Origin: Candidatus Microgenomatus sp.
GTDB taxonomy: Bacteria; Patescibacteriota; Microgenomatia; UBA8517
Length of the DNA: 64,000 bases
NCBI GenBank assembly: GCA_020724555.1
Contig: DYGT01000004.1
Location: 9,564 to 73,563 of the forward strand
Direction of reading: 5' to 3'
A model generated the notes under the pieces. It saw only the letters and a program-made list of their open reading frames with translations. It was not told the DNA's origin and searched no databases. Below are positions 8,919-44,107 of the stretch, piece after piece. The translations under genes were made by a program, and so were the position numbers. Position 1 is the stretch's first letter, and every line of letters begins with the position of its first letter.

Positions 8919-10562
8919 TTAATTGGCGACTATCTGAAATGCTATTTCGCCACTAGGAAAATAAATCTCATAAACGACATTTGTTTCATCCGGAATTTCT
9001 TCATCTGTACCAATTATAAGGCTGTCCGGATTTTGGCGCGCAAGCTTGTAAAAATCTATTGCAACAAATCTGTATTTTGAATATGCGTCAACAGTGGAAA
9101 AACCGAATTCGTCTGCCTTTGTAAGCGTGTGATCTGCTTGAAAAAGTTCGGGCGGATACTTAGTGTAATACAACATAAGTATGTACGGCTGGTCGTAACG
9201 CGTGGTGATGAAAACTTTTTCAAACTTGTGCTCTTCTTGGACAACATAATCTGCCATTTGAGAAAATCCGTATTGCGAAGAATAAGGATATTCCTTGGGC
9301 AGATGTTTGTAATACATTATTAAATACCTGACGACGGAAAGGCAAAGAGAGAATATGATAAGCGAAAATAGTGTATACTTCATATAATTTTTTTGCTTTT
9401 TGGCAAAAATTAATATCTGCGATAATCCAAAACCACTAAAAATTGCCATGGGTATGACCATGTTTTGCGCCCGCAGAGCATGTGGAGACTGAAACGTAAA
9501 AGCCGCAGCCGCAGGAGATATCAATAGCCACCAAAAAACAAATCCCCATCCTTTAAATTTCTTGGCTATTTGCGACCCGGCAACGAGGATAAACACAATC
9601 TCCACTAGATATAAAAGCCCTGTTTCAGGGACTTTATTGCGCTGTATCTCATCTCCTGAAATAAACAAAAATTCACCTTTGTAGTGCTTTCCCCAATTTG
9701 AAAGAAATTTCATCGTATACTCAAGGGGTTTATTGTGAAAGGCTTTGGCGCTTATACCTCCAATATCCTGATGTTGGCCTCTAAGCTCATTAATGCGGTT
9801 AATAATTCCAGGGTCTGCCGTAATTCCCACTCCACCAGCGCGAGACAAACCCCCACCTATGAGTAACGAATAAATAAGCGGCAACGCCAAAACAATGCCA
9901 ATTGCAAGCGAGGCTATAAACGTTTTGGCGTTTCTTTTTATATAGGACCGGTTAAAAAACAAAAGGCCCAAACCTAAAAGAGGCGCAACAACCAAAGAGG
10001 CATGATAAATATATAAAGAAATTACAAAAGCTATAATCGAAAAAAAATAATATTTAGGTTTTTTTGTGGCATTTAAAAACAATAAAACGCCCAGCAACAT
10101 AAAAAACGTCGCAACATTCACTTCCCAGGCGCCGCGGGAAAAATGGATATGCCACGGGGAAATTGCAAGCATTAATGCCGCCGAAAGTGAAAAATACTCC
10201 TTTTTTTCTTCTTGCAGATTGCCAAACCAATTTTTTACCAACAATGCAATTAAAAATATGCTTAAACTTCCCAAAAAAATGGAAACAAATCTGATGCTTA
10301 ATGCATTTAAGCCAAATAAATAGACAAAGGGTAAAATCAGATAAACGTATCCGCCGGGCTTATAATCATTAAAAGACTGAAAATGTATCGGCCAGGCATT
10401 TCCATGCTCGTCTTTTCCGGTTTGGATTAAAGAATAGGCGTTGTATCCCAAAGCCGCCTCGTCCGCATTTATTGGAGGTAAAGTCGCGGACTTACATAGT
10501 CTTAAAATAAGACCAAGCAAGAAAATTAATAATAATAATAAATAATACTTATTCTGTTTCAT
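8919..10562 (-). CDS. GT39/PMT/ArnT-like GT-C membrane glycosyltransferase, family A paralog A1
   Basis: NADEAALGYNAYSLIQTGKDEHG first-loop DE motif, then FNDYKPGGYVYL. Central AFHNK...FLFISGD. Late LISPAAAAF..SPHALRA. 547 aa, polytopic. Confidence 0.75.
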   Translation of the reverse strand: MKQNKYYLLLLLIFLLGLILRLCKSATLPPINADEAALGYNAYSLIQTGKDEHGNAWPIHFQSFNDYKPGGYVYLILPFVYLFGLNALSIRFVSIFLGSLSIFLIALLVKNWFGNLQEEKKEYFSLSAALMLAISPWHIHFSRGAWEVNVATFFMLLGVLLFLNATKKPKYYFFSIIAFVISLYIYHASLVVAPLLGLGLLFFNRSYIKRNAKTFIASLAIGIVLALPLIYSLLIGGGLSRAGGVGITADPGIINRINELRGQHQDIGGISAKAFHNKPLEYTMKFLSNWGKHYKGEFLFISGDEIQRNKVPETGLLYLVEIVFILVAGSQIAKKFKGWGFVFWWLLISPAAAAFTFQSPHALRAQNMVIPMAIFSGFGLSQILIFAKKQKNYMKYTLFSLIIFSLCLSVVRYLIMYYKHLPKEYPYSSQYGFSQMADYVVQEEHKFEKVFITTRYDQPYILMLYYTKYPPELFQADHTLTKADEFGFSTVDAYSKYRFVAIDFYKLARQNPDSLIIGTDEEIPDETNVVYEIYFPSGEIAFQIVAN

Positions 10563-12210
10563 TGACTTTTAATACATAAAATGCGGCTGTACCGTCCGGA
10601 TAATCGATTTCTTTGCTTAAACTAAGCTTGGGTATTTGTGAAATTTTATCTAAAGGCAGGGTAACTGCACTAACAATTAAATATGAATTGTCCGTAGCAT
10701 ATATTTCCCCCCAATTAAGATCCTGAAAGTAAACATTGCCTACTTTTTCAACTAAACCTACGTCCGCATTTCCACTTTCTTTAAATGAATTAGCGTTTTG
10801 GTACTCCAGAGGGTCGTATTGGCTATAAAATAAATAATAAATATAGGGCTGGTTATACGACTGCTCAACAAAAACGGTGCTATCATCCGCAATTTTATCT
10901 ATTTCTAAAGCCATTTGTTTATATCCATAGCCCCACTGTCGGGCTTGAAGCTCTGGCAAGTGGACAAATTCCGCTTCGACAAACAACAAAAAAGAAACTA
11001 TGTATGAAAAAATCAATATAACCAGAGCTTTTTTACTAAATTTTTCATAAAGTGAGGCTACACCTAAGGCAGCCAAAATAATTAAGGGTACGGATAAATA
11101 TAAGGCTCTCACGGCATGGACTTGGTCGCGCGACAGGGCAGCCGGTAATGGTGCCAGTAATAACCAAAGCAAAACAAGCGCTCGGTTTTTATCAAACCTT
11201 CGGAATAAATAAAATAATCCCACGGGTATAGTTACGATGCTTGCCAGAAGCATCATGCCATGGTATGGAGGGCTATGTCTGGGGTTTTGCCAATCACCTG
11301 TAAAAAACAAAAAATCGGTTGAATAGTGATTAAAGTAGCGCCCCAATATTCCGCGCAAAAAATTATATGGTTCGGAATAAAACAGATAATAAGCCGTACT
11401 GCCCACTTTTACATTTGCCTGAGATATAAAAGCATCGCGGTACTGGCTTGGCCGGGGATAAGAAAAAACGCTGAAAACAGATAGCCGGCCGGTCTGGCCT
11501 TTAAAAAATGACATAGCCACCGGCAGCAAAAATATTAATCCAGTAATTATTGATATTAATAAGTACTTAAATCTTATTTTAATAAATTGCTGATAAAAAA
11601 GTGCCAAAAGAAAAATTAGTAAAAACAAACTCATGAATTTGGCGCCTTGATAAGTCCACAACGTCAATCCAAAAGCAATAGCCGAAAAGATTAAATATTT
11701 GTTCTTATTTAGGGCTATGAGGAAAAAATATACAGCCATTATTGTCAACAGCAAAGCAATATTTACTTCCCAAGCGCCGCGGGAAAAATGAACCGACCAG
11801 GGATTTATCGCAAGCAGAAGTGAAGAAATATACGCCGTTTTTTGCCCAAAAAGTTTTTTCATTAACAAATACATAAAGAGCACGGACAGCGTCCCACCTA
11901 AAACACTCGGTAAACGAACAGCAACTTCGGTTAAGCCAAGAAAAGCAACAAACGGAATTGTCAGATATACATATAGACCGGGCTTATAATCTCCAAATGA
12001 TTTGAAGATAACCGGTAAAAGTGCTCCGTGCTCATCGCGCCCGGTTTTTAATATGGAATACGCATTATATCCCAAAGCCGCCTCGTCCGCAGTTAAACTT
12101 GGAGGGTTACTACCAATATCATAAAACCTGATTATAAATGCCGCAGTTAAAATTGCGGCCATGGTTGCTATATTTTTATTCTTCATATATTTCATAGGCA
12201 ACATCCCCAT
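10549..12210 (-). CDS. GT39/PMT/ArnT-like GT-C membrane glycosyltransferase, family A paralog A2. The true start is probably an internal Met, which removes the 35-nt overlap with A3.
   Basis: TADEAALGYNAYSILKTGRDEHG; FGDYKPGLYVYL; FLFFTGDWQNPRHSP; LLAPLPAALSRDQVHAVRA. Confidence 0.75.
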   Translation of the reverse strand: MGMLPMKYMKNKNIATMAAILTAAFIIRFYDIGSNPPSLTADEAALGYNAYSILKTGRDEHGALLPVIFKSFGDYKPGLYVYLTIPFVAFLGLTEVAVRLPSVLGGTLSVLFMYLLMKKLFGQKTAYISSLLLAINPWSVHFSRGAWEVNIALLLTIMAVYFFLIALNKNKYLIFSAIAFGLTLWTYQGAKFMSLFLLIFLLALFYQQFIKIRFKYLLISIITGLIFLLPVAMSFFKGQTGRLSVFSVFSYPRPSQYRDAFISQANVKVGSTAYYLFYSEPYNFLRGILGRYFNHYSTDFLFFTGDWQNPRHSPPYHGMMLLASIVTIPVGLFYLFRRFDKNRALVLLWLLLAPLPAALSRDQVHAVRALYLSVPLIILAALGVASLYEKFSKKALVILIFSYIVSFLLFVEAEFVHLPELQARQWGYGYKQMALEIDKIADDSTVFVEQSYNQPYIYYLFYSQYDPLEYQNANSFKESGNADVGLVEKVGNVYFQDLNWGEIYATDNSYLIVSAVTLPLDKISQIPKLSLSKEIDYPDGTAAFYVLKVNETE

Positions 12211-15526: not shown

Positions 15527-17206
15527 TTAGTAAACCTCGACAATCAGCCAAGCAACTTCACCATTGGGGAACAAAACCTGCTCCACTACCCGAGCCTCAT
15601 TTGGGTCGATATCCTTGGGCCTTACCCGCTCCGGAGGCCCGACAAAAAGGTGCCCGGATTTATATCGATCCTCGGGCCAATATATAGGCCTGAATTCATA
15701 ATTATCATAGCCGGCGCCTTCACCTAAGGACTGTGGATCGGCCTGAATCAGTCGCGCTTGTGGTTGATACAGTTCCGGTGGATATTTTTGAAAGAACAAA
15801 AAGAATATGTAAGGACCTTGGTAAGTTGTATCTACCACAACTTTTTGATAATGAGCTGCAAGCGGGGTAACTTTATTAACTACCTCCTGATAACCCCACT
15901 GCCACCCTGCCGGGCCCTTATAATTTTTTTTAGGAGTATAAATGTAATAGCTTATAAAATAAAAGGCTAGTAAATATGTTGAAACTAAAGCGGCTAACAC
16001 CAATAATAATTTTTTTAATTTTACTGGTTGCTTTTTAATAATCGCCGCCGATTCCCAAAAGCCAAGCGAAGACAACATCAATAACGGATAAACCATATTA
16101 AACGCACGGCGGGCGTGTACCGGATCGCGTGTAATAGCAGCAGGCAGTGGAGCCAATAATAGCCACCCAACAGTAAACATGCGGTTCTTTTTTTTAAGCT
16201 TGCCAAGAGAAGTTAAACCCAAAAATATAAATGGCAAATCAAACAAATAAAGCATACCCATATCAAAAATGTATTGCCTGGGGTCTTCCGAAGGACCGAA
16301 AAAAAATAAAAATCTGGGTGAAAAATGAGTCAAATACCGATCGATAAACCCAAAAGTGCCTTCGGCCAGAGAACTATGAAACAAGTCATAAGTTAATACT
16401 GAAGTGCTTAATTTTTGAACTTGCGTAACATACTCGCCTGGGCGTTGATAGCCAAAGACAGTTGTTTTAAGAATTTTTTCCTGATGCCCTTGGGATACAA
16501 GAGACGAAAAAATGGGTAAGGCAAAAATAAGTATAACAAAGATGATTTTTAATAAAATCTTTTTTCTCTCAAAAAGTTGTTTACGGTTAACAAACAACAA
16601 CCATAAAAAAATGAGCGGAACAAACAATCTTTCTCCAAAATAACTATAGATAGAAAGTGAAAAAAATACAGCTGATAAATAATAAAGTTTGGGCTTTTTA
16701 TTACCATACAAGAAAAAGGCAATACCTGCTGTCGTAAATATGGTGGCAAAACCCACATCCGCCCCTCCTCTGCTGAATTGCAGATGCCAAGGAGAGAAAC
16801 AAAGCATTAAGGCCGAGACAAAAGCAACTTTTCTTTGCGTCAAAACTTTAACTATAAAATAAAAGGCCACAACGGAAAAAGAAGACGTAAGACTCGGAAG
16901 TAAACGGACAGACCATAAATTTAATCCAAAAATTTTAATAAAGGGTACCAAAGCATATATAAACAAAGGCGCTTTATAGTCTCCGACTGATTTAAATTGC
17001 AAGGGCATAAAATTGCCATATTCATCTTTGCCTGTTTTTAGGATTGAATAGGCATTATAAGCAAAACTAGTTTCGTCCCAATTTAAACTAACCGGTACTT
17101 TATTTATAAACACAATCCTTAGTAAAAAAGCTAGAATAAAGATACCGAAAGGCAGTAAAAGATCGCCACTTACCTTATTATTTTTAAATTTTTCCAGGAC
17201 TTTCAT
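15527..17206 (-). CDS. GT39/PMT/ArnT-like GT-C membrane glycosyltransferase, family A paralog A5
   Basis: NWDETSFAYNAYSILKTGKDEYG; FSPRFLFFFGPSEDPRQY; LLAPLPAAITRDPVHARRA. Confidence 0.75.
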   Translation of the reverse strand: MKVLEKFKNNKVSGDLLLPFGIFILAFLLRIVFINKVPVSLNWDETSFAYNAYSILKTGKDEYGNFMPLQFKSVGDYKAPLFIYALVPFIKIFGLNLWSVRLLPSLTSSFSVVAFYFIVKVLTQRKVAFVSALMLCFSPWHLQFSRGGADVGFATIFTTAGIAFFLYGNKKPKLYYLSAVFFSLSIYSYFGERLFVPLIFLWLLFVNRKQLFERKKILLKIIFVILIFALPIFSSLVSQGHQEKILKTTVFGYQRPGEYVTQVQKLSTSVLTYDLFHSSLAEGTFGFIDRYLTHFSPRFLFFFGPSEDPRQYIFDMGMLYLFDLPFIFLGLTSLGKLKKKNRMFTVGWLLLAPLPAAITRDPVHARRAFNMVYPLLMLSSLGFWESAAIIKKQPVKLKKLLLVLAALVSTYLLAFYFISYYIYTPKKNYKGPAGWQWGYQEVVNKVTPLAAHYQKVVVDTTYQGPYIFFLFFQKYPPELYQPQARLIQADPQSLGEGAGYDNYEFRPIYWPEDRYKSGHLFVGPPERVRPKDIDPNEARVVEQVLFPNGEVAWLIVEVY

Positions 17207-17796
17207 ACCTTAGCCGGCAGCAAATAAAGATAATCGTGCAAAAACCGTAAGTATTCATAAATAAAAATCATAAGTAAAAACAAAACAACTTTAGGTTTTA
17301 TTTTGATAAGCCTTGCCAAACCTACCCCGGCTAAGGTGCACAATATAAATAATGCGGGCAGTCTAACAAAAGTATTATATTCATGGGCGATAAAACCGGC
17401 CGGGAGTAATGAAACTATAAGACATATAAAAGTCAGTAAACGCAATTTATTGTTTAAATAGTAAATACCCGCCAACATCAAAGGTAAATAAGATAAATAC
17501 AAACAGCCCGCAATTATCGCTCCGGAAAAAAATAAGTAATGAGGCTCAAAAGTGTTGCCAATGCGAATAAGTATCATTCTTCCTCTATAAGTCACTTTGT
17601 TGGCAAAAAGCCTGGCCACAAAATTGGGCATTCCTGCCTCAAACAATAAGCCACGATTGTTGTTTATAGTTTCCCGGGCTACACGGTCTGAAACAGTAAT
17701 TGTTTCACCTGGCGAAAAGTCTTTCTGGCCTAAAGTAAAAAGAGCAGCAGGAGATAATATAAATAAAAATATTGCTGCTGTAATAATATTTTTCAT
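17203..17796 (-). CDS. Half-size family A derivative (197 aa). It matches only the central loop and following TM region of the GT39-like paralogs and lacks the catalytic DE N-terminus. It is either a truncated paralog/pseudogene remnant or an accessory subunit.
   Basis: ARLFANKVTYRGRMILIRIGNTFEPHYLFFSG aligns with A6 RLFHNKFTYWGDMIVNNYLDSFSLDFLFYEGD. SLLPAGFIAHEYNTFVRLPALFIL aligns with the APIPAAxTRD region. It has a signal-peptide-like N-terminus and ATGA overlaps at both ends. Confidence 0.55.
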   Translation of the reverse strand: MKNIITAAIFLFILSPAALFTLGQKDFSPGETITVSDRVARETINNNRGLLFEAGMPNFVARLFANKVTYRGRMILIRIGNTFEPHYLFFSGAIIAGCLYLSYLPLMLAGIYYLNNKLRLLTFICLIVSLLPAGFIAHEYNTFVRLPALFILCTLAGVGLARLIKIKPKVVLFLLMIFIYEYLRFLHDYLYLLPAKV

Positions 17797-19037
17797 TTAC
17801 TATTAAAAAAGTATTTCCCATAAAGAAAGGCAAAAATTATCAGTTGGGTTGCGGCAACAATATTCATAAATGCCGGATTTGTATATAAAGCTTCCCAGAA
17901 ATCAACATTAGGTACCCAAAACAGATGGTATAAATTCATAAGATGCGCCAAAGATAAGATTGAAATGGGTATAACTAGTTTTGGCTTATATGTCATCAAT
18001 ACCGTGGCTACCGGAAAAAATGGATACAGGTAGCGCTCGTGAATACGGCTCATAAACAAAAATGTGATTAAGGCGGATAGTGCCAGCGCATAAAAAACCT
18101 TCTCATTTTTAGGTTTTTTAAGCCTTAAAAAAAGTAGCGCGATTAAACCCAAAGATAGTAAATATCCCCAAAGGCGAGCTGTTAAGCCAAAAAATTTAAT
18201 AGAATCATATGTCCTACCCGGGTCAACAAGCCACCAAAAATTAAATGCGTTTGCCGTTAAAAAGCCAATCTCTCCCGGTAAAATCCGCTCACGGTAAAGG
18301 TTAATAAGCCAGATAAATAAATCAAACTTTGGATAAAACCACAAAGATACGCCTACCGCTATTAGAGCTGCAGCGAAAATCGCTTTCAACCATACAGTTG
18401 GTTTGTAATTTTGTTTGACTGCAACAAAAAGCAAAACAGGTACAAAGATGGCAAGCGAACCTTTAAAAAGAATAGACAAAGTAAAATACACGGAAGTAAA
18501 AACTAACTTTTTATTCAGAAGTGCAAATATTCCTAATAGTCCTAATAAGTTTACAATTGCGTCCGTTTGCCCCCAGACTGCTGAATTGTACCATGTAACC
18601 GGATTTATCAGCCAGATAACAAGTGCCAAAAGTGCGTATTTTGGCTTATGTTTTTTTACAAAATTATAAAGCAGCAAACCGATGCCCAAGTCGGCTAAAA
18701 TTGAAGGTATTTTTACTAAAAAAGTCATCCCGCGCTCTTCCCAAAACCAAATAAAGGGAGAGGGAAAAATAGGTATTTGTGCGTTCAGAGAACGGATAAA
18801 ATCATAAACATACTCCCAAACTGCCCGCAAAAAAACAAATAATAAAATATATAAAGGTGGCTGGTTGGGAGCTGAAAAAGACCAGATGTCATATTCATAA
18901 AAACCATTTAAACCGCGCACAAAACCCATAGTTCCCCAGGAAATGTTATTATTAAGATCTCCGTGGTAACCCCAAAACATCACCATTAGCCGCAAAACAA
19001 ATCCCAAAATCAAAATAATTAAAACTTTTTTATTCAT
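17793..19037 (-). CDS. Polytopic membrane protein, family E (GT-C-like candidate)
   Basis: 414 aa, about 11 TM segments. N-terminal loop GYHGDLNNNISWGTMGFVRGLNGFYEYDIW. It is a paralog of 44094..45362 (LHPDLWGHSFTAYFFSSEGVFNIYEY). Confidence 0.45.
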   Translation of the reverse strand: MNKKVLIILILGFVLRLMVMFWGYHGDLNNNISWGTMGFVRGLNGFYEYDIWSFSAPNQPPLYILLFVFLRAVWEYVYDFIRSLNAQIPIFPSPFIWFWEERGMTFLVKIPSILADLGIGLLLYNFVKKHKPKYALLALVIWLINPVTWYNSAVWGQTDAIVNLLGLLGIFALLNKKLVFTSVYFTLSILFKGSLAIFVPVLLFVAVKQNYKPTVWLKAIFAAALIAVGVSLWFYPKFDLFIWLINLYRERILPGEIGFLTANAFNFWWLVDPGRTYDSIKFFGLTARLWGYLLSLGLIALLFLRLKKPKNEKVFYALALSALITFLFMSRIHERYLYPFFPVATVLMTYKPKLVIPISILSLAHLMNLYHLFWVPNVDFWEALYTNPAFMNIVAATQLIIFAFLYGKYFFNSK

Positions 19038-20766
19038 TGGCGGCGCCAGTTAACAAATAAAATACCGGTTCCCCCGAAGGATATGCTACCGAGTGCATAA
19101 GCGAAAGACCCGGTGGAGTTCTTTGGGGTTCAAGAATTAGATTCATAGGTATTTCTTTGGCTGAGGCGACATACAAAGTTTTATTATCTAATATTTCCGC
19201 CCACCGAAATACGTTTTCTTTGGGCGAGGCAAAATAAAATTTATCAATGTGGCTCGCATCCCCAAAGCCTTCCAGAGGTACAACATTATCCAGTGGAAAA
19301 TTCTCCTGCCAAAGTTTAGGCGGATATTCATACCAAGCTGCAAAAAATATCCAAGGCGGTTCGTTAGCTACTGAAAAAACTACCCTATCGTATTCACTCT
19401 CATGCTCTTTTACATAAGCGACGGCTTCCTCAAAACCACTGTGCCACCAACGCTCGGAGTTCCATGGGTAATGAACCCAATAATTGTGTTGATAAAATAT
19501 AAAATTAAGCAAAAACAAGCCGAGGTAAGCAGATACAAAAAAAACTTTTTGGCCACGCTTTAATCTTGTTAATGTGTTAAAAAGTCCCCAAGCCATCAAA
19601 ATTATTAAAGGCGGCAGCATTAAAATAAGTCTGGTTGCGTGAGTGCCACCGTCTCTGGTAATTGCTGAGGGAATAGGGGCTGTCAGTATCCAAAAAAGTA
19701 TTAACCATTTTTTACGAACATCGGCCTTACTCCCACCCGAAAAGTAAAAGACTATACCTAAAAATAAAGCCACTGCCTCAACTACATAAAACTGGCCTAT
19801 TCCTCCGATTGAGTGACGGGGGTTGATGTCTCCCTCGTAAAATAAAAAATCCAGAGAAAATGAATCCAAATAATTATTTACAATCATATCTCCCCAGTAA
19901 GTAAATTTATTATGAAATAACCTATCAGTATAACTTGCTGCAAATTCCCCACCTTGCTTTTCGCGAAAGACAACATCGTGTAGCCTCTTATCCCCTACCG
20001 CATACTCTGTATTGGGGTCGGAAAATACGCCAATGTAAGAAAAACGCTGGGCTGCTCCACCGGCAAAAACGCTATAAGCGGTAGGGAGGCCGACTATCAC
20101 AAAAGCAAGAAAAGCGCCAAAAAGATGTTTTGGCTTAAGCTTTTTGAGATCACGCCAGTATAAAATTACCAATATTCCCACAATAACGGGCGTGTACAAT
20201 TTGGCTGAGCTATATATCCAGGGCATAAGCCCCAAGCACAAAGCCGAAAGCCAAAGCCATTTGCCGTCTTTTAATCCTTTGAAAAAAAGATACAAACCCA
20301 TAAAAAAGAAAAACAAAAGTTCGGTTACTTCAAAAGCTCCACGGCTATACTGAATATGCCAAGGCGAAAAAGCCAAAAGAGCTGAAGCCAAAAGTGCCAA
20401 TTTTTCGTTTTTGTAAAAAAAACGGACAAACAAAAACAAAGCAATTATTCCCAATATGCCAAAAATTGCGGCCGGCAAACGCACTCCCAAAGGGCTTATG
20501 CCAAAAAGCCACACCGTGGGAACAGCGGAATATAAATAAAGGGGCGTACGCCACTCAGCCAAAGAGTGCAGATGAAACGGTAAAAAATTGCCGTAATAAT
20601 CGCGTCCGGTTTTCAAAAGAGAATATGCATGGTAACCAACGTCTAATTCATCTCCAAACAATGACACAGGGACTTTGGCCAGCCCGTTAAGCCTCAAGAG
20701 CGAAGCTATAATAATAATCCCGCAAAAAAGCCATTTATTTTTCTTGCTCATATAAAAATTGTACAC
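19030..20766 (-). CDS. GT39/PMT/ArnT-like GT-C membrane glycosyltransferase, family A paralog A6
   Basis: FGDELDVGYHAYSLLKTGRDYYG; FHNKFTYWGDMIVNNYLDSFSLDFLFYEGD; LTAPIPSAITRDGGTHATR. Confidence 0.7.
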   Translation of the reverse strand: MYNFYMSKKNKWLFCGIIIIASLLRLNGLAKVPVSLFGDELDVGYHAYSLLKTGRDYYGNFLPFHLHSLAEWRTPLYLYSAVPTVWLFGISPLGVRLPAAIFGILGIIALFLFVRFFYKNEKLALLASALLAFSPWHIQYSRGAFEVTELLFFFFMGLYLFFKGLKDGKWLWLSALCLGLMPWIYSSAKLYTPVIVGILVILYWRDLKKLKPKHLFGAFLAFVIVGLPTAYSVFAGGAAQRFSYIGVFSDPNTEYAVGDKRLHDVVFREKQGGEFAASYTDRLFHNKFTYWGDMIVNNYLDSFSLDFLFYEGDINPRHSIGGIGQFYVVEAVALFLGIVFYFSGGSKADVRKKWLILFWILTAPIPSAITRDGGTHATRLILMLPPLIILMAWGLFNTLTRLKRGQKVFFVSAYLGLFLLNFIFYQHNYWVHYPWNSERWWHSGFEEAVAYVKEHESEYDRVVFSVANEPPWIFFAAWYEYPPKLWQENFPLDNVVPLEGFGDASHIDKFYFASPKENVFRWAEILDNKTLYVASAKEIPMNLILEPQRTPPGLSLMHSVAYPSGEPVFYLLTGAANE

Positions 20767-31979: not shown

Positions 31980-33658
31980 TTAACTTCGTAGATCGTCACC
32001 CGGCTATTTTTGTAAATTTCTTCTATCCCGAGTTGGGTTTCTCCCAAAACTGCCCGCTGCCCATAAAGCCAGTAAATATAAGAAATGTTGTTATCCCTTA
32101 AAAAATTGTAAACAAAGCCATGGTCTTGGCTATTTAACCATTCTTCCACGCTTTCGCGTCTTTTAACCCAATCGTAGCCGGTAATGGTCAAGTTTACTTC
32201 ATCTTCCAAAAATACGGGCTTTTTCGAAAAAGAAGATACATAAGCACTACTTACATATGCGTATAACGGCACCGGAGGCACCATTTTGTCTTTAAGCAAA
32301 GGATCATAAGGATAAGTCAGGACAACGCCTTCCGGTTCATTGGCTAAAAATTGCAAAGCCTCAAATTCTTCTCGCAGCAAGGCTGCGGGTGGTACTTTTG
32401 TTAAGTAATGATATTTTAAAGTAGCAATACTCGTTGGTATTGTAAAAATTATTATCAAAGTAGTAAATAAAATAGCGGCCTTGCGGGGTAATTTTTTGTT
32501 TATACCAGACAAGACAATACCGGCTAAAATAGCCATAAAAAATTGCGCATAATATAAAAACTGTATCGTATTCCAGGCTGTGCCCTTTTGCAAAAAAATC
32601 ATTGGAGCTGCTATCCCGCCGAGAATAATCAAGGCGGAAATTATACTTTCCATTTCATATTTTTTTTCTTTAATTCTAAAAAAATACAATAAACCGAGAA
32701 GTTTTGTACTAAAGTTCCCCAAAATAAAAATGACAAATGCCCCTATATAAGAAGCAACCAATTTTAGATACACCCCTTGGGATTTATAGGCCGTCATGGC
32801 CTCGAAATAGCGTTGCCAACCAAAGCGGTCCGAAAGTCCCATCATTGTTTCTAAAAACCAAAAAGGCTTAATCACCAGAAGCCCGGATGAATTCCGATTA
32901 AGCGGTATAAATAAAATTAAGGATAAAACCAAAGACGCTAAAAATACAAAAAATTCTGAAAACTTTTTATTTTTAAAATAGCGGTATAAAGAATAGATAA
33001 ACAAAGCTGATAAAAGCAGTACCCCGGCGTACGCTTTAATTGATAAAAGAACCGAAAAACAAGTAGTGGCACCCCATGCCGTTTTGTTTTTTTTAGTTTT
33101 TAAATAAGATTGATAAAAAATAAGCCCCAAAAGCAGAATGATTAAAGACATGGCATAGGGAGGATTTATGAGCGTCGAAATTGCCTGTTGTGACCAAAAC
33201 ATAGACTCACCGTCAAAATTACCGTTTCTTATAAAACTTACAAGCCAGCCCAATGAGCCGCCAAAATATATAAAAAACAAACTCCAGTTCGCACTATCCC
33301 TACCCCGCCAATTTCCAACAAAGATATAAGTCAAGACACCGATAAGCAGCGAAAATAAGACAGGAATTATTTGAAAATATAAATATCTGACCGGAATTCT
33401 TGTCAACGCGTGTAAGATAGCAACAAAGATATCAAAACCTATATGGTAATTTCTTATACTTTCACCGGCAAAAATGGGCATTTCCAAACTCCCCTTTGCC
33501 AAAGATTCAATAATTGACATATGCCATATACCGTCATGTCCGTTCGGGCCCCAAAAACCAAGACCGTATTCATACATCAGACCTGAACGAACCATAACAA
33601 AGGACCAAGAGATACTGCCGATTAAGATAATAAATATGGTTAAGCGTTTTGCGCCCAT
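31976..33658 (-). CDS. Large polytopic membrane protein (560 aa), unclassified. Possible GT-C-like enzyme with a GHDGIWHMSIIESLAKG loop.
   Basis: About 13 hydrophobic segments. The loop motif is loosely reminiscent of family D DGxHYxxIAxxGY. Confidence 0.35.
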   Translation of the reverse strand: MGAKRLTIFIILIGSISWSFVMVRSGLMYEYGLGFWGPNGHDGIWHMSIIESLAKGSLEMPIFAGESIRNYHIGFDIFVAILHALTRIPVRYLYFQIIPVLFSLLIGVLTYIFVGNWRGRDSANWSLFFIYFGGSLGWLVSFIRNGNFDGESMFWSQQAISTLINPPYAMSLIILLLGLIFYQSYLKTKKNKTAWGATTCFSVLLSIKAYAGVLLLSALFIYSLYRYFKNKKFSEFFVFLASLVLSLILFIPLNRNSSGLLVIKPFWFLETMMGLSDRFGWQRYFEAMTAYKSQGVYLKLVASYIGAFVIFILGNFSTKLLGLLYFFRIKEKKYEMESIISALIILGGIAAPMIFLQKGTAWNTIQFLYYAQFFMAILAGIVLSGINKKLPRKAAILFTTLIIIFTIPTSIATLKYHYLTKVPPAALLREEFEALQFLANEPEGVVLTYPYDPLLKDKMVPPVPLYAYVSSAYVSSFSKKPVFLEDEVNLTITGYDWVKRRESVEEWLNSQDHGFVYNFLRDNNISYIYWLYGQRAVLGETQLGIEEIYKNSRVTIYEVK

Positions 33659-34527
33659 GCTTCAAATTCTCCTGTATAAGCACGAAAGGAATAATTATTT
33701 ATACCCAATTTTATTGATAATTTTTTAAGATTTTCAAATATAAACGGGGAGTAATATTTAAGCCTGTTAAAAACATACTCAACACTTAAAACATGATAAG
33801 TTGTACTAATTTCTATATTTTTGAAACCAGCAAGTTCCAAAGCTTTACGCATGGATTGTTTATTAAAATAAGTCACATGCTCACCGGGTTTATAATGGTA
33901 CCACAACGAGCGCAAAATTTTTGCCCAATAGCCTCCTATATCACAGGTAATTAATAAAAGTATGCCGTTATTTTTTAAATATTTTCTGGCAAAACGAAGT
34001 TCCTCCACGGGATCTATAATATGCTCAATTACATCCTGGTAAATTATTACGTCATAAGTTCCCCTAAGTTTTGCTTTTCTTAAAGGGCCTTTATACACTT
34101 TTAAATTTCTTTTTCTGGCCTGAGATCTGGCAAATGCGGACACTTCCACGCCGTGCGCTTTGCTCCACCCCATTTTTTTTGCCTCAACCAGGCAATCGCC
34201 AAAAGCGCATCCTACGTCTAAAATGCTTCCTTTTCCGTATTTTTTAGCAATTTTTTCTAAACGGTGGCGAAATGTTTTTTTACTAATCTTCATCCCTTCA
34301 TAATAATTCGCGTAACCGCCTTTGGGATTATCATTAATATAATATGACCTATCATACTGCGCTAATAAATCGTCAGCGGGTGTGTGATCCCAGACCATAG
34401 AACATTTTTTGCACCTACTTAAACGGTAACCCTGCATTGCCCAATACTTTTCCCTGTCTCGGCTTCCACACACCGGACAGGAATCAATTGTTTTTAACGG
34501 TATTTCTGATAATTTTTTTGGCATCAT
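33640..34527 (-). CDS. Class I SAM-dependent methyltransferase with an N-terminal CxxC...CxxC zinc ribbon
   Basis: CPVCGS...CKKCSMVW; ILDVGCAFGDCL; YDVIIYQDVIEHIIDP. Confidence 0.8.
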   Translation of the reverse strand: MMPKKLSEIPLKTIDSCPVCGSRDREKYWAMQGYRLSRCKKCSMVWDHTPADDLLAQYDRSYYINDNPKGGYANYYEGMKISKKTFRHRLEKIAKKYGKGSILDVGCAFGDCLVEAKKMGWSKAHGVEVSAFARSQARKRNLKVYKGPLRKAKLRGTYDVIIYQDVIEHIIDPVEELRFARKYLKNNGILLLITCDIGGYWAKILRSLWYHYKPGEHVTYFNKQSMRKALELAGFKNIEISTTYHVLSVEYVFNRLKYYSPFIFENLKKLSIKLGINNYSFRAYTGEFEAWAQNA

Positions 34528-35965
34528 AAATTAAGCTTTTTCCGATTATTAAATATGAAAAAATTAAATAAAATATTCCACCGCTTCCTACCATAAATAC
34601 AAAATTAAACCAATTTGCCGACAGCCGGTTGACTAAAACAAATAAATATATCCCCATACTAATCGCAGATACAAAAGGCGCCGCTGCTTTTAGGATAGAA
34701 AAATCTACATATTTTTTCCCTACCCATATGGCCACAACAGAACTTAACCCTACCAATGCGTATCCGGCAGATGCTCCTAAAACATCCCATTTTATAGCCA
34801 AAATCGGCACTAAAATAACAGTCAGGATTGTATACATTATCGTAATCTTAATAGTTGTCTTCACTCTGCCAATGGCGGTAAGCATATTTGATATTTGCGT
34901 AGCAAAAGCGGCAAACAAAACATTAAAAGCTACAAACCACATTAACGGAGCCGCCGGTGCCCATTTTTGATATCTGGGAAGGATTATCATCAAATCCGGC
35001 GCCAGCAACAAAAAGCCAATGACGCTTGGATATACCAAAAAAGTTATAAACATGATTGAACGCGTGACAACTTTTGCCAGCTCGATTTTGTTGTCCTGCA
35101 TACGGGAAAATGCCGGAAAAGAAACTTTGGTAACGTTGTCCATAAAAAGCCGGAGTGGTATTTGTGTTAACCGCATAGCCGTTCCCAAGTAGCCGACGGC
35201 CGCTTGGCTTAAGATGCCTCCAAGCAAAAGAATAACCCCCTGGTCTTTCAAAACGGAGATAAAAGTATTAATTTGATACGGAATACCGAATTGCAAAAGA
35301 CCCTTAAGTGCCTTTCGGGAAAATGCGATACCCGGCATCCACGGCTCAAGAATATAAATAGTAACAAGTCCTACAACACCGCGGATAAGAACAGCATATG
35401 TAAAACTTCTAAGTCCCAAACCCGTATAAGCAAAATAAACCAAAGACACGTTATAAAATAAATTTTCTAATATTTCGGGCAGTACAAATTTTCCAAATTC
35501 AAGCTTACGCTCCAACAAAACCGAGGGAATGCTTTTTAAAGAAGAAAAAAACAAAGAAAAGCCCAAAGCAAAGAGCAAATATTTCCCCTCAGTGCTTAGA
35601 TCATAAGCTTTTATAACAAGCGGACTTGATAAAAAAAGTATCAAAATCAAAACTATTACCAAGCCTTGCTGAACGGTAAAGGTGGTTTTTAGTTCCAAAT
35701 CGCTTAACTTTTCTTTTTTCTGGATCAGTGCTGCTGCCAAACCCACGTCTGAAAAATACATTAGAAAATAGACAAAGGCGTTTACTATGTAATAAACCCC
35801 GATTTCCTGCGGATCCAAAAAGGCCAAAAGTAAAAGCTGGGAAACGGTGGTAATTGCATTTAACAAAAACCCTCGACCGGTCAAAATTGCCACCCCCCTG
35901 ACCGCTCTTTTTTTAACGGTATCTAAGTTAAGCTCGATGGCGTTATCTAAATTCTGCTCTTCCAC
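34484..35965 (-). CDS. PST-family oligosaccharide/polysaccharide flippase (Wzx-like)
   Basis: RGVAILTGRGFLLNAITTVSQLLLLAFLDPQEIGVYYIVNAFVYFLMYFSDVGLAAALIQ is a typical Polysacc_synt N-terminus. 493 aa, about 14 TM segments. Confidence 0.8.
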   Translation of the reverse strand: MEEQNLDNAIELNLDTVKKRAVRGVAILTGRGFLLNAITTVSQLLLLAFLDPQEIGVYYIVNAFVYFLMYFSDVGLAAALIQKKEKLSDLELKTTFTVQQGLVIVLILILFLSSPLVIKAYDLSTEGKYLLFALGFSLFFSSLKSIPSVLLERKLEFGKFVLPEILENLFYNVSLVYFAYTGLGLRSFTYAVLIRGVVGLVTIYILEPWMPGIAFSRKALKGLLQFGIPYQINTFISVLKDQGVILLLGGILSQAAVGYLGTAMRLTQIPLRLFMDNVTKVSFPAFSRMQDNKIELAKVVTRSIMFITFLVYPSVIGFLLLAPDLMIILPRYQKWAPAAPLMWFVAFNVLFAAFATQISNMLTAIGRVKTTIKITIMYTILTVILVPILAIKWDVLGASAGYALVGLSSVVAIWVGKKYVDFSILKAAAPFVSAISMGIYLFVLVNRLSANWFNFVFMVGSGGIFYLIFSYLIIGKSLIYDAKKIIRNTVKNN

Positions 35966-36015
35966 TTGATAATTGTATCATCCGGTTTGATGTAAAATAA
36001 ATCTAGTTTAAAATA

Positions 36016-36837
36016 ATGATTCGCCTAAAAAATATTTACAATAAAACAAAACTTCCTGTCTTGGTTTTTCTTTCAATAATTTTTTGGCCACTTAATCTTT
36101 TCATCAACAATTCTCCGAAAACTTTTTTGGTATCCGTAGCTCCGGCAATACTCACAGCTTTGTCTTATCAAGAGCCGTTATTTCTGCTTTTTATTCCCAT
36201 AATTTCTCCTAAATTGTTACTATTTCCGCTTATATTCATCCTGGTGGTGTTTTATTTCAAAAAAATATCTAAAACCAACGTCTTTTTATTTTTAATATTT
36301 TACTCATTCATCTTTTTATTAAGATGGCCTGACTTTTATAACCAGTCTATTTTTCCTTATGACTATGAAGCTCAACAACAAGTAGTTCGGGACACACAAC
36401 TATATGACTCAGTGTTTTTGGCCAGATTATTTCACAATAAGGCAAAAATTAGGATTGATGATTTTAACACCAATCTGTTTTCGCTTCTGGACCCAAACAA
36501 TTATTTCTTCAATTTTCATCCACGCTTACCCCTCTCTCCCAACCAAATGCTGTCAAAATATGGCTTTGCTACCTTCGTACCACTCCTAATTGGTTTTATA
36601 AATTTAAATAAGATTAAGTATAAGGAATATTTGATAAGCGTTTTTATTGGCGCATTGGTCAGCCTGTCTTTTTTGAAAATTTTCGACGCGCACGATTTTA
36701 TCTTGTGGATACCGCTTTCTATTCTAATTTCATCCGGTTTATCAAAAATTGATAATTTATCAAATAGAAAAAATTACTTTGGGGAAATTTATGCAGTAGT
36801 TTTATTAATTGAACTAGTCAGATTGGTAATTAAATGA
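36016..36837 (+). CDS. Half-size family A derivative (273 aa), homologous to the central region of the GT39-like paralogs and lacking the DE N-terminus and C-terminal domain
   Basis: ARLFHNKAKIRIDDFNTNLFSLLDPNNYFFNFHPRLPLSP parallels family A FHNK...FLFFTGDWQNPRHSPP. ATGA overlap with the downstream full-length A8. Confidence 0.5.
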   Translation: MIRLKNIYNKTKLPVLVFLSIIFWPLNLFINNSPKTFLVSVAPAILTALSYQEPLFLLFIPIISPKLLLFPLIFILVVFYFKKISKTNVFLFLIFYSFIFLLRWPDFYNQSIFPYDYEAQQQVVRDTQLYDSVFLARLFHNKAKIRIDDFNTNLFSLLDPNNYFFNFHPRLPLSPNQMLSKYGFATFVPLLIGFINLNKIKYKEYLISVFIGALVSLSFLKIFDAHDFILWIPLSILISSGLSKIDNLSNRKNYFGEIYAVVLLIELVRLVIK

Positions 36838-38507
36838 TGAATAAATTTAAAAAATACTTAATCTATATAATCTTTTTTGTTATTTTACTCCTTGCTTTTG
36901 TAACGCGTTTTTATAAATTGGGCCAGGCTCCCGCTGGTCTTTATTTAGACGAAGCGGCACAAGGTTACAATGCATATTCAATTTTAAAAACAGGCAAAGA
37001 CGAATTCGGAAAAGGTTTTCCGATAATTTTCAGGTCATTTAATGATTTTAAAACACCTGTTTATATTTATCTGATCACTCCGCTTATACCAATTTTTGGA
37101 TTAACTAAATTTACTGTTCGTTTTCCGTCTTTTCTCTTCAGCCTTTTAACTTTTCCCTACTTATACTTACTTATTAGCAACATCACAAACAAAAAACTTG
37201 CCAAAAAACTGGCATTATTAACATCTCTTTTGCTTGCAATTTCCCCTTGGCATATTTTATTTGGCAGAACGAACTTTGAATGCAATGTTGCCCTATTTTT
37301 CTTCATTGCCGGATCATATTATTTTTTTATTGGTCTTAATAAGCCAAAATATCTGATTTTATCGGCCCTATTTTGGGCACTGGCAATCCCGAGCTACCAT
37401 TCACAACGCATCATAACGCCCATTATGATGCTTGTGCTTTTATTTAAATACAAAAACCAACTTTTAAAAGATGGCTCCCGAAAATACATTTTATACGGCT
37501 GTTTGCTGGGGTTTATAATTTTGCTTCCAACATTGTTAGTTTCATTTACTCCGGGTTTTTTATCCCGGGCTACCACTTTAAATATCTTTAAAACTTCACC
37601 GGTGGGAATTATTGATACCAAAAGCATTTTCTCTTTTATCATTAACAATAAAATTTACCTAAACGTAAGGGAATTTATGTCTTTGTATATATCTTATTTC
37701 TCTCCTATAAATATGTTTGTTTTAGGAGATTACGGTTTGCGAAGTTCTTTTCCTGCTCTTTCAACTTTTTTTGTGTGGCAGGCGCCTTTTTACTTTATCG
37801 GACTGTACTACCTTCTTAAAGATAAAAATCTTGGAAAAATCAGGCACTACACAATAAGTCTGCTTTTAATCGCACCCATTCCGGCTGCCGTCACCCGTGA
37901 TCCGTACACAACAATACGTGCTTTACCTTTAGTTATACCGCAATTAATCGCTATTTCCCTGGGAATCATCTTTGTTTATGAAAAGCTTGCAAAACAATGG
38001 ATTAAAATAGCTGCCATAATTTTATTTTTGTCCACGGTCGGCTACAGCCTTCTTAAGCTATATAGTTCAGTAATAGTCCTTAACGAATATTATCGTGCAC
38101 CGTATTGGAACTATGGCTGGGAAAAAGTCGTTGATTCCATAAAACTACACGCCGGAGAGATGCCGGTGGTCGTGGACGACGCCAGAGGTGAACCATATAG
38201 CCAAATTGTCTTTTTTCTAAAATATGACCCTGAGGATTTTCAGGCCAAAAACACTATAGATTTAAAAAATTACTACACCGACATGAGCAGAAGAAAAAGC
38301 AAAACTATTGGCAATATAGAAACCCGGGGAATCAACTGGGAACACGATTTAAAAAAAGAACAAATTCTGGTTGGGGATTCTCTGGCTATCTCCCGAGAAC
38401 AAATAGAAAGACACAATTTAACTTTATTAGATGAAATTTTATTTCCGGATGGCTCTGTGGCTTTTAGAATAGTTCGCACCAACCAAGAGGCCAAAGACAG
38501 CAATTAA
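36834..38507 (+). CDS. GT39/PMT/ArnT-like GT-C membrane glycosyltransferase, family A paralog A8 (the only plus-strand one)
   Basis: YLDEAAQGYNAYSILKTGKDEFG; FNDFKTPVYIYL; LIAPIPAAVTRDPYTTIRA; C-terminal FPDGSVAFRIV. Confidence 0.75.
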   Translation: MMNKFKKYLIYIIFFVILLLAFVTRFYKLGQAPAGLYLDEAAQGYNAYSILKTGKDEFGKGFPIIFRSFNDFKTPVYIYLITPLIPIFGLTKFTVRFPSFLFSLLTFPYLYLLISNITNKKLAKKLALLTSLLLAISPWHILFGRTNFECNVALFFFIAGSYYFFIGLNKPKYLILSALFWALAIPSYHSQRIITPIMMLVLLFKYKNQLLKDGSRKYILYGCLLGFIILLPTLLVSFTPGFLSRATTLNIFKTSPVGIIDTKSIFSFIINNKIYLNVREFMSLYISYFSPINMFVLGDYGLRSSFPALSTFFVWQAPFYFIGLYYLLKDKNLGKIRHYTISLLLIAPIPAAVTRDPYTTIRALPLVIPQLIAISLGIIFVYEKLAKQWIKIAAIILFLSTVGYSLLKLYSSVIVLNEYYRAPYWNYGWEKVVDSIKLHAGEMPVVVDDARGEPYSQIVFFLKYDPEDFQAKNTIDLKNYYTDMSRRKSKTIGNIETRGINWEHDLKKEQILVGDSLAISREQIERHNLTLLDEILFPDGSVAFRIVRTNQEAKDSN

Positions 38508-40091
38508 AGACACCAAGCTAATGATATCAACCAACGCCCTACTTCTGGTCTCTTTCCACTTTACATAAACTTTGTGTTTGCCGGGGGACAGGAAAAAAGT
38601 GATTTGGCCATAGGGCTCTCCGGGTGTAGTTTTAACTTCAGTTCCGTCTACTTTTGTCACCCAACCTGGGAAATAATACGCCCAGAAGGTGAAAGTCGAA
38701 TCCTTTTCGGCTAACACTTCAAACTCATAGTGGATATCAGAAATTTTCTTGGTTTCAAATATCTGTCCATTTGTAATTTCAGCTTTACTTTCAAAGGGCC
38801 TTTCCGGGCGCTTGTCTGCCCATTTGGGTAAAAGCAAATAATCTTCGCTGTAGTTAGGGTCGTTAAAAAAACGCTCCAAATAATAAGCGTCGGACTTATA
38901 AACAACTTCTGCAGGTCTAAAGTAATTAAAAGTTAATATCAAAGAAAAAGTTATAAAAATTAAGGCAAATATTTTTTCGTTTTTTGTGTTATCTAAAAAT
39001 ATTGCTAAAGAAATAGCAGAAAAAAATCCGGTTAAAAACAAAAGCCTCCAGGGAAACTGGATAAAACCATAAAAAGGTATTACTCTCCAAATGGGATAAG
39101 TCCTTATGTTCATAAACAAAACGCTTATGGCAAAACCGAATATTGTAAGTAAAGCCAATGTCAATTGCTTTGTTTTTTTTCTTTTTAAGAAAATCAAGAT
39201 TCCCAGCGATAAAACGGCAGCCATGTTTACAATCCCTAACTGAAATGAAATCTCGTCCCCGGGTCCCCATACGGAACTGCCATAACCCCAGCTAGGCAAA
39301 AGCAGTTGTTTTATAAAAGGGAAATGGTCAACCAATAAAAAAGGCGTTTTATCTGCCACTAAACCCTGATCCATAAGCGCCGGCAGCCACCAATAAATAG
39401 TGATCAAAGCCGAAGAAAATGCACTAAGAATTAATTTTCCCAAAATCTTTAATCTATCCTTTTGTTTGTAGATTTCGAAAATTGCCAATATCCCCAAAAA
39501 AGGTATTGTTAATACCCACAAATAATTATGCGATAATAAATAAATACTTAAAACAAGGCTGAATATTGAAAAATTTTTGATGTTTGTCTTTCTGATTAGC
39601 CTTACTAAACCCCATGCGACAAGTGGCAAAATTGCAATGATTAATACCTCTCCCATCGCTCCACGCACATATAGTTGTACGGCTCTGTAGGGCGTGTATA
39701 AATACAATAAGGCACCGGCCAGGGATGCTATTTTGTCCATATAAAGTCGCAAAAACCCATACATGCTGTAAAGAGATACAAATATACTTGTAAGAAAAAC
39801 CAATTTAAAAGCCAAGGTGAGACTGCCCAATAACGAGTAATATAAAGCCCCGAGATAAAAAGGAAAAACGTAATAAAAATGGAATAAAGGATATCCCAAA
39901 CCCCAGGTAAAATCCGGCCCTAACCGCGGCGGCAACTGCCCAGCAAAAAAAGCGCGGTACATCTCATAAATATCGGCTAAATGGTGTAGGTCATGGGGCT
40001 CGTAAAATCCGGGTAACAAAAGCGGCAGACCCGCTGGAATCGCACCAAAAGTTAATATTATTAATGGCCAGTATTTTTTTAAGTATTTCAT
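38439..40091 (-). CDS. Polytopic membrane protein, family B paralog B1 (GT-C-like candidate)
   Basis: PGFYEPHDLHHLADIYEMYRAFFAGQLPPRLGPDFTWGLGYP; late FIQFPWRLLFL. 550 aa. Confidence 0.5.
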   Translation of the reverse strand: MKYLKKYWPLIILTFGAIPAGLPLLLPGFYEPHDLHHLADIYEMYRAFFAGQLPPRLGPDFTWGLGYPLFHFYYVFPFYLGALYYSLLGSLTLAFKLVFLTSIFVSLYSMYGFLRLYMDKIASLAGALLYLYTPYRAVQLYVRGAMGEVLIIAILPLVAWGLVRLIRKTNIKNFSIFSLVLSIYLLSHNYLWVLTIPFLGILAIFEIYKQKDRLKILGKLILSAFSSALITIYWWLPALMDQGLVADKTPFLLVDHFPFIKQLLLPSWGYGSSVWGPGDEISFQLGIVNMAAVLSLGILIFLKRKKTKQLTLALLTIFGFAISVLFMNIRTYPIWRVIPFYGFIQFPWRLLFLTGFFSAISLAIFLDNTKNEKIFALIFITFSLILTFNYFRPAEVVYKSDAYYLERFFNDPNYSEDYLLLPKWADKRPERPFESKAEITNGQIFETKKISDIHYEFEVLAEKDSTFTFWAYYFPGWVTKVDGTEVKTTPGEPYGQITFFLSPGKHKVYVKWKETRSRALVDIISLVSLIAVFGLLVGANYSKSHRAIRK

Positions 40092-43395: not shown

Positions 43396-44107
43396 ATTTT
43401 CCTTGAATATTCCACCAACGTATCAGCAAAAGGTCACGAAGCGATGTGACAACGGCGTCAAACAATTTCACTTTTGTATCTTTTCGATTCTTCCAGGCAA
43501 CGGGGATTTCTTTAATTTCATACCCATATTTGTGAGCTAAAAACAAGATTTCGGCGTCATATACCCAGCGATTGATCAATGCATGGGAGAAAATATCTTT
43601 GGCAGCAGCCCTTCTAAATCCTTTAAAACCGCAGGTAAAATCTGATAAATTTACGCCCATAATCGTCCTTGTTAAAGTTGTAAATACTTTTCCCATCGAT
43701 TCGCGGGCAATTGGTTGATGAACGACAATATCCGAGCCTTTAGTTCTTCTGGAAGCAATTGCTACATCCGTTGATTTTAGGGCTTCCAAAAAATCTTTTA
43801 CTTTTTTTATATCAACCGACAAGTCTACATCAGAAAAGATTATGTAATGACCCTCTGCTGCCTGCATCCCTTTTTTAAGGGCAGCGCCTTTACCCATGTT
43901 TTTGCCTGATTTTAGTAGCTTTACATTTTTATTTCCATATTTTCTGACGATCGCAGCAGTTTTATCTCTTGAACCATCATCAACTACGATTATTTCCCAG
44001 TTTAGATTTAACTTAGTCAAGTACGCTACACTTCTATCCAAGGTATTTTGGATAATATTTTCTTCGTTATATGCCGGAAATATTAAGGTTAAATCAGGAT
44101 TTTTCAT
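43379..44107 (-). CDS. GT2 polyprenyl-phosphate sugar synthase (DPM1/GtrB-like)
   Basis: LTLIFPAYNEENII; WEIIVVDDGSRDKTAAIV; GKGAALKKGM; SDVDLS. Confidence 0.8.
   Translation of the reverse strand: MKNPDLTLIFPAYNEENIIQNTLDRSVAYLTKLNLNWEIIVVDDGSRDKTAAIVRKYGNKNVKLLKSGKNMGKGAALKKGMQAAEGHYIIFSDVDLSVDIKKVKDFLEALKSTDVAIASRRTKGSDIVVHQPIARESMGKVFTTLTRTIMGVNLSDFTCGFKGFRRAAAKDIFSHALINRWVYDAEILFLAHKYGYEIKEIPVAWKNRKDTKVKLFDAVVTSLRDLLLIRWWNIQGKYEKAS

Follow-up and report, generated by a model that had tools for sequence, protein, structure and literature searches.

Our comparative analysis supports the view that two overlapping genes, S1 and A8, form a GT-C glycosylation unit in which a full-length enzyme is accompanied by a dedicated truncated paralog; the comparative evidence for this is strong, and the mechanism is one that we infer. 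The genes lie in a 64,000-nucleotide stretch of DNA from Candidatus Microgenomatus sp., here called the window, which carries 14 GT-C paralogs of the PMT_2 type (family A). GT-Cs such as ArnT, oligosaccharyltransferase, the PMTs and the Emb proteins have been treated as single-chain enzymes that hold the catalytic and substrate-binding modules together. In the GT-C_A class, a conserved module comprises helices one to seven and carries the catalytic base on its first luminal loop, and the variable module that comes next provides most of the acceptor contacts (PMC13503287). ArnT has a flexible loop, PL4, connecting TM7 with TM8; the carrier phosphate is contacted by residues beyond this TM7–TM8 loop (Y345; in oligosaccharyltransferases, an Arg) (PMC7801869). 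Judged from gene order and protein comparison, S1–A8 points to an undescribed two-protein glycosylation unit; a search of open-access papers found neither a half-size GT-C partner nor GT-C expansions of Patescibacteria/CPR described.

The features of the S1 gene and its surroundings, in window coordinates, are as follows.

34484..35965, minus strand: Wzx-like flippase gene (Pfam Polysacc_synt_3, E = 7.7e-52), directly adjacent to S1
35966..36015, no strand: divergent intergenic region of 50 bp between the Wzx-like flippase gene and S1
36016..36837, plus strand: S1, a 273-aa helical membrane protein and truncated GT-C-like module, from the ORF map
36430..36540, plus strand: codons of the hallmark loop motif, S1 residues 139–175, consensus ARLFxNK…NFFxLxDPNNYFFxFHPRE
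36834..36837, plus strand: ATGA junction, overlap of the S1 stop codon and the A8 start codon
36834..38507, plus strand: A8, a 557-aa full-length GT-C (ArnT/PMT_2-like) that has both the DE motif and a soluble domain at the C-terminus; cognate partner of S1

An earlier note, made from the letters of the window, had described S1 as a 273-aa membrane ORF immediately 5' of A8 and sharing an ATGA junction with it. The ORF map and an all-helical structure model agree with the first part of this description, and the second is read directly from the junction sequence, ttaaATGAtgaat, where TGA occupies 36835–36837 and ATG occupies 36834–36836. Such a stop/start overlap is typical of genes that may be translationally coupled. 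The peptide cited in the note, FHNKAKIRIDDFNTNLFSLLDPNNYFFNFHPRLPLSP, corresponds to S1 residues 139–175. According to the ORF map, the S1–A8 pair is a plus-strand island in a locus that is mostly on the minus strand, and promoter and terminator scans gave promoter-like matches around the pair that were not above shuffled expectation. The 3' end of A8 overlaps a convergent PTPS_related gene, 38439..40091 on the minus strand, by 69 nt (window 38439–38507), so that there is no space for a terminator between the two genes. The S1 protein entry in the databases carries no name.

The partner A8 is predicted to be a bona fide, complete GT-C_A enzyme by its PMT_2 match, its first-loop DE pair and its ArnT/STT3-like fold. 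The match to Pfam PMT_2 has an E-value of 3.3e-13, the nearest solved relative by sequence is ArnT (E = 3.6e-8) and the DE pair is invariant across A8 orthologs. In the AlphaFold2 model (pLDDT 85), A8 has the same arrangement as S1 around its 238–313 loop; this S1-like part is preceded by an N-terminal part, which bears the DE motif, and followed by a C-terminal alpha/beta domain. A Foldseek search with this model returned ArnT as the best match (5ezm, E = 5e-8, probability 1.00), followed by STT3, AglB, PglB, ALG9/12 and Pmt4.

The AlphaFold2 model of S1 (pLDDT 89.9, pTM 0.86) consists of four helices, an extracytoplasmic loop of about 70 residues containing short helices, and four further helices; the segment 54–82 is probably re-entrant. 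As the earlier note had stated, S1 has neither a DE loop nor a soluble domain at its C-terminus, and the alignments to full-length enzymes span only enzyme residues ~165–425. The distribution of K+R along the family alignment (positive-inside rule) places the N-terminus inside and assigns the FDRNDF loop, like the big loop, to the outer side, in keeping with GT-Cs. In the alignment of 43 close homologs, 21 positions are invariant and 30 near-invariant. The conserved positions include W24, N32, Q110, Q121, R137, K142, D159, N162, Y163, F164, F165, P169, Q177, K181, D224, D227 and G241, and the invariant or near-invariant residues of the motif are R137, K142, N153, D159, N161, N162, Y163, F164, F165, H168, P169 and R170.

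The likeness between S1 and family A is above chance and, as far as sequence comparison can tell, detectable at the profile level only. In hhalign, the single S1 sequence aligned to the 14-paralog alignment with a probability of 95.7% (E = 8.9e-9; S1 114–247 on family A columns 255–387), and the 43-sequence S1 profile did so with 96.4% (E = 1.2e-9; S1 116–263 on family A 254–406). An HMM built from 74 sequences of the short family and run against other genomes found several full-length GT-Cs at E-values of 1e-5 to 1e-10, its positions 7–225 (about 220) being collinear with residues ~165–425 of the enzymes. These comparisons bear out the proposal that S1 is a half-size relative of family A. The common core is a polar loop sequence, beyond the hydrophobic helices: the pattern shared by family A is F-x-N-K … Y…F-[SD]-P-x-F-L-F-x-x-G-D…P-R, and that of S1 is A-R-L-F-x-N-K … N-F-F-x-L-x-D-P-N-N-Y-F-F-x-F-H-P-R-E. 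The earlier note had illustrated the parallel with a central-loop peptide of one paralog introduced by FHNK. The paralog 10549..12210 does carry FLFFTGDWQNPRHSPP, but FHNK is absent from it and occurs instead in 19030..20766 and 8919..10562.

In terms of the GT-C_A architecture, S1 matches the end of the conserved module, a PL4-like loop and the helices of the variable module. Homology over the region from TM7 through the loop to TM8..11 was found by hhalign, by HMMER and through the second short protein S2 as an intermediate, and the seven-TM N-terminal module with an acidic residue in the first loop (DE/DxD) was not found, there being no DE-type loop after helix 1 of S1. S1 itself has no hit in Pfam or NCBIfam, and no PMT_2/PMT or other GT-C model matches any of its 43 close relatives or of 10 more distant family members. 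Pfam models of GtrA (about four TMs) and of Polysacc_synt/MOP flippases likewise match no S1 member, and the Wzx-like genes are separate ORFs. A PDB sequence search with S1 or its family gave nothing meaningful. Against the A8 clade itself, profile–profile comparison of S1 reached E-values of only 0.05 to 7e-5, and a recent copy of its own partner was rejected as the origin of S1 on these values; against the partner clade of S2 the E-value was 5e-5.

Members of the S1 family are numerous. A word-indexed search found 53 homologs, nearly all 260–280 aa long and 34–50% identical, and a profile search run exhaustively over 1.84 billion cluster representatives (50% identity clusters) yielded 356 clusters with E-values at or below 1e-3, 83 of which were at or below 1e-30. 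The best 150 of the 356 matches are 80–306 aa long, save one spurious repeat protein, P0145, a protein of 1243 aa with about 17 tandem repeats that reaches E = 1.5e-21 through a short repeated stretch and looks like a repeat-driven match rather than a relative of S1. A simple pattern scan found the hallmark motif in 111 of 145 representatives, and its form NK…DxNxYFFxxHPRE is kept down to about 20% identity. The named close homologs belong to Woesebacteria and other Microgenomates, to which a scan of GTDB species adds Collierbacteria. With more than 350 clusters and its invariant polar residues, S1 is a widely conserved, unannotated family and no chance pseudogene, in agreement with what had been argued from the window.

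The short gene is followed by a full-length GT-C gene in every locus that could be tested, and the recurrent two-component organization proposed in the earlier note is upheld by this synteny survey. A direct look-up in five distinct genomes found a gene of about 275 aa and then a same-strand PMT_2 gene of 552–581 aa, overlapping or abutting, and the short gene on the source genome's own contigs is likewise followed by a PMT_2 gene. The GTDB species scan, with the 43-sequence alignment as query, gave 25 loci; in 23 of them the short gene precedes a family A gene of 517–589 aa at a spacing of −76 to +34 nt, and contig ends truncate the remaining two. Close loci with the short gene directly before a GT-C number 28. 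A more distant set came from a metagenome scan with the 'HPRERxG' subgroup, which is about 20–25% identical to S1: 65 of its 70 distinct short genes directly precede a family A gene, and the five exceptions comprise four with less than 170 nt of contig left and one 103-aa fragment. The modal junction is a 4-nt overlap, seen in 22 of 59 distant pairs.

The enzymes downstream are of one type. The 27 close partners share 41–61% identity with A8 and no more than 33% with the next window paralog, and A8 is the best match of all distant full-length partners (59 of 59, at 31–38% identity). When full-length ORFs in the fetched loci were counted, the short gene lay upstream of 78 of 81 A8-type enzymes and of 1 of 99 other family A types; these loci had been chosen for the presence of S1; each contains several paralogs, and which of them the short gene accompanies still carries information. 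The genome L014 has the cassette twice: the second copy (L014 1–2000, minus strand) consists of a 191-aa short gene with the motif NYFFIGHPRER and, directly downstream, an A8-like GT-C sharing 36% identity with A8. Both genes were here duplicated together, as a unit. Over about 100 related uncultured bacteria, these gene neighbourhoods show an obligate and clade-specific linkage to the A8-type enzyme in every testable case. The pair thereby combines the marks of a two-subunit system: adjacency, a common strand, stop/start overlap and a single partner clade. Several loci with this Microgenomates-type cassette (L014–L018, L022, L025, L029, L030 and L032–L034) bear the GTDB titles 'uncultured Gammaproteobacteria' or 'Pseudomonadales', which look like placeholder or wrong taxon labels of these metagenome-assembled genomes.

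A second short ORF of the window has a comparable setting.

17203..17796, minus strand: S2, a second short GT-C-derived module of 197 aa, in which the HPRE motif is absent
15527..17206, minus strand: partner of S2, a 559-aa GT-C (Pfam PMT_2, E = 1.5e-12) with an ATGA overlap with S2

The ATGA junction between S2 and its full-length partner, also pointed out in the earlier note, was read in the sequence. The single S2 sequence aligned by hhalign to family A 222–417 with E = 1.4e-10. In one series of profile–profile comparisons, S2 reached E = 3.6e-18 against family A and 9.8e-14 against S1, and S1 reached 2e-9 against family A; S2 is closer than S1 to family A and is an intermediate between the two. 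A word-indexed search with S2 found a 97% identical copy as its sole match. However, S2 as an orphan was rejected, since orthologs of its partner keep S2 homologs upstream: in three genomes (63%, 52% and 48% identity of the partner), a gene of 197, 222 and 220 aa, respectively, lies directly upstream, is 46%, 34% and 32% identical to S2 and matches the family A HMM at 1e-10 to 7e-23. On this comparative evidence, S2 represents another conserved family of short proteins, linked to an enzyme orthogroup of its own, and neither S1 nor S2 is a recent copy of its own partner. The two cases had been presented as independent instances of one arrangement; both are conserved, but they need not be independent, S2 being closer to S1 (E = 9.8e-14) than S1 is to family A (E = 2e-9). 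Two separate truncations, or one ancient truncation and a duplication of the whole cassette, fit equally well.

Next to S2, the gene 17793..19037 (minus strand) encodes a 414-aa membrane protein with no Pfam match, which hhalign aligns only to the N-terminal columns 84–197 of family A (probability 90%). A single split GT-C gene made up of this gene and S2 was rejected: the 414-aa protein is complete, is separately conserved and matches the N-terminal part of family A only. Genes of 417–437 aa with no Pfam match also flank the S1–A8 pair in L001, L005, L006 and L014, and genes of the 17793..19037 type may constitute a further small GT-C-like family.

As to the function of S1, we lean, by a modest margin over even odds, towards a GT-C-derived, non-catalytic subunit acting together with the cognate A8, the complex, the lack of catalysis and the ligand binding being features that we infer. 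In this proposal, S1 would descend from the central part of an ArnT-like GT-C and be a functional protein under purifying selection. It would have kept the last helices of the conserved module, the equivalent of the ArnT PL4 loop and four helices of the variable module, and have lost the catalytic DE motif of the first loop together with the periplasmic C-terminal domain. Being co-transcribed and, through the overlapping stop and start codons, translationally coupled with the A8-clade gene, S1 would be made in a fixed proportion to A8, and the two would assemble in the membrane, with S1 as the non-catalytic subunit. Its outward loop (R137, K142, D159, N162-Y-F-F, H168-P-R170 and D224/D227) might bind a polyprenyl-phosphate-linked substrate or an acceptor, and S1 might in this way deliver substrate to A8 or modulate how specific A8 is in its extracytoplasmic glycosyl transfer. 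Binding of a polyprenyl-phosphate-linked donor or acceptor is suggested because the retained part lines the carrier/acceptor site in solved GT-Cs; the mapping of ligand residues is tentative, as the alignment between S1 and the A8 clade is unreliable at the residue level (E = 0.05, shifting register). S2 may do for its partner 15527..17206 what S1 would do for A8. A broader proposal, that S1 and S2 represent a new class of stand-alone 'loop plus variable-module' subunits that would bind the substrate, either a lipid-linked donor or an acceptor, in trans for a full-length GT-C, is one that we put forward only tentatively.

Among the points that speak against a subunit role, the partner A8 seems complete by itself, and no fusion ('Rosetta stone') of S1 with a GT-C was found among the best 150 of the 356 matches or in the metagenome loci checked. 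The lack of fusions would also suit an S1 that works in the same pathway as an enzyme or transporter in its own right, acting on a polyprenyl-phosphate-linked intermediate (by flipping, recycling, hydrolysis or as a small transferase) and tied to A8 by gene linkage only. We regard this as a possible but rather doubtful alternative. The invariant D159, D224 and D227, the near-invariant D116 and E118 and the outward R137, K142 and R170 resemble an active site, and S1 could have a catalytic activity given the conserved acidic residues D116-Y-E118, D159, D224 and D227. S1 is also far diverged from the A8 clade, and extracytoplasmic glycosylation systems require a flippase for the carrier-linked sugar (PMC9574508). 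Nevertheless, the locus already contains two Wzx-like flippases, one of them adjoining S1, and the catalytic loop of GT-Cs is absent from S1. In addition, one-to-one pairing with a single clade, overlapping codons and duplication as a unit are more like the behaviour of a subunit than that of a pathway neighbour.

Two further explanations dispense with a function for S1 or with its kinship to GT-Cs. The resemblance to family A could be compositional, arising from hydrophobic helices in an unrelated small membrane protein that happens to lie beside a GT-C. BLASTP of S1 against the 14 window paralogs gave no match, Foldseek of the S1 model against the PDB gave nothing significant (best STT3, E = 0.53), and the only Pfam matches in the S1 family are stray sub-threshold ones to unrelated families (weak EpsG and TgpA_N in a few members). 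This explanation is effectively excluded and very improbable, however: the aligned region is centred on the polar loop with its shared F-x-N-K, [SD]-P-x-x-[FY]-[LF]-F and P-R elements, the HMMER matches to several full-length enzymes extend to 1e-10 over collinear positions, and S2 stands as an intermediate at about 1e-18 to family A and 1e-14 to S1. Alternatively, S1 and S2 could be functionless, decaying remnants of tandemly duplicated GT-C genes, as their truncation relative to family A and the near-identical single homolog of S2 in the word-indexed search would allow. Conservation effectively refutes such pseudogene fragments, to which we attach a negligible probability: S1 keeps its length and motifs from about 50% to about 20% identity across hundreds of clusters, in three other genomes the S2 homologs (32–46% identity) have retained their length, their reading frame and their place, and the high-confidence fold of S1 argues for a stable protein.

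An association of the kind proposed for S1 as a subunit of A8 has parallels outside the GT-C fold. In GtfA–GtfB of streptococcal serine-rich-repeat glycosylation and in the split Alg13/Alg14, an inactive or partial glycosyltransferase-fold protein is the obligate partner of an active one; these are GT-B proteins, soluble or peripheral, unlike S1. Among GT-Cs, Pmt1–Pmt2, EmbA–EmbB and the Pmt4 dimers are paired paralogous membrane proteins, as presumed for S1–A8, but both of their protomers are full-length and catalytic, whereas S1 would be a non-catalytic half. With respect to ArnT and the PMT_2 enzymes (GT39/GT83-like GT-C_A), of which A8 is a full member, S1 and S2 show homology to a central stretch of ~260 residues, made up of the TM7–TM8 loop and its flanking helices. 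Unlike these enzymes, they have neither TM1–4 with the catalytic DE loop nor the periplasmic C-terminal domain; they fall below every Pfam threshold and have a signature of their own, DPNNYFFxFHPRE. The S1 locus also resembles the three- and four-component systems (GT-A, GtrA or Wzx flippase and GT-C, with or without GacJ) in having GT2, Wzx-like flippase and GT-C genes (PMC9574508). GacJ-type activators and S1 are each a small membrane protein dedicated to one enzyme; however, GacJ acts on the cytoplasmic GT-A (PMC9574508) and is unrelated to GT-Cs, whereas S1 is coupled to a GT-C and is itself GT-C-derived.

If the broader proposal of stand-alone subunits is true, GT-C enzymes can be modular two-chain machines, and one ancient GT-C clade of Patescibacteria depends on a half-enzyme. 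A truncated paralog locked to one clade would be a natural experiment that sets the 'variable module plus loop' apart from the catalytic module, and it would give a route to what this part binds. S1 also defines an unannotated protein family, and S1–A8 is a marker cassette of cell-envelope glycan loci in Microgenomates/Patescibacteria, which are mostly known from metagenomes and whose surface biology is poorly characterized.

The window itself is an exceptionally dense envelope-glycan locus between 1392 and 60205, nearly all of it on the minus strand. In addition to family A it contains three PTPS_related GT-C-like genes (38439–43395), one YfhO (23824–26193), nine GT2 and several GT4 genes (one of the latter fused to a methyltransferase, 1392–3089), the two Wzx-like flippases and several methyltransferases. 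A 315-aa protein encoded at 49337–50284 (minus strand) matches Pfam MATCAP, the microtubule-associated tyrosine carboxypeptidase family, with an E-value of 1e-6 and a score of 28.4 bits (cut-off 27); this family is unexpected in a Patescibacteria genome. Three large minus-strand ORFs, 31976–33658, 5090–6214 and 44094–45362 (560, 374 and 422 aa, respectively), have no Pfam match, and the first encodes a polytopic membrane protein of 560 aa and lies where a further GT-C-like enzyme would typically be found.
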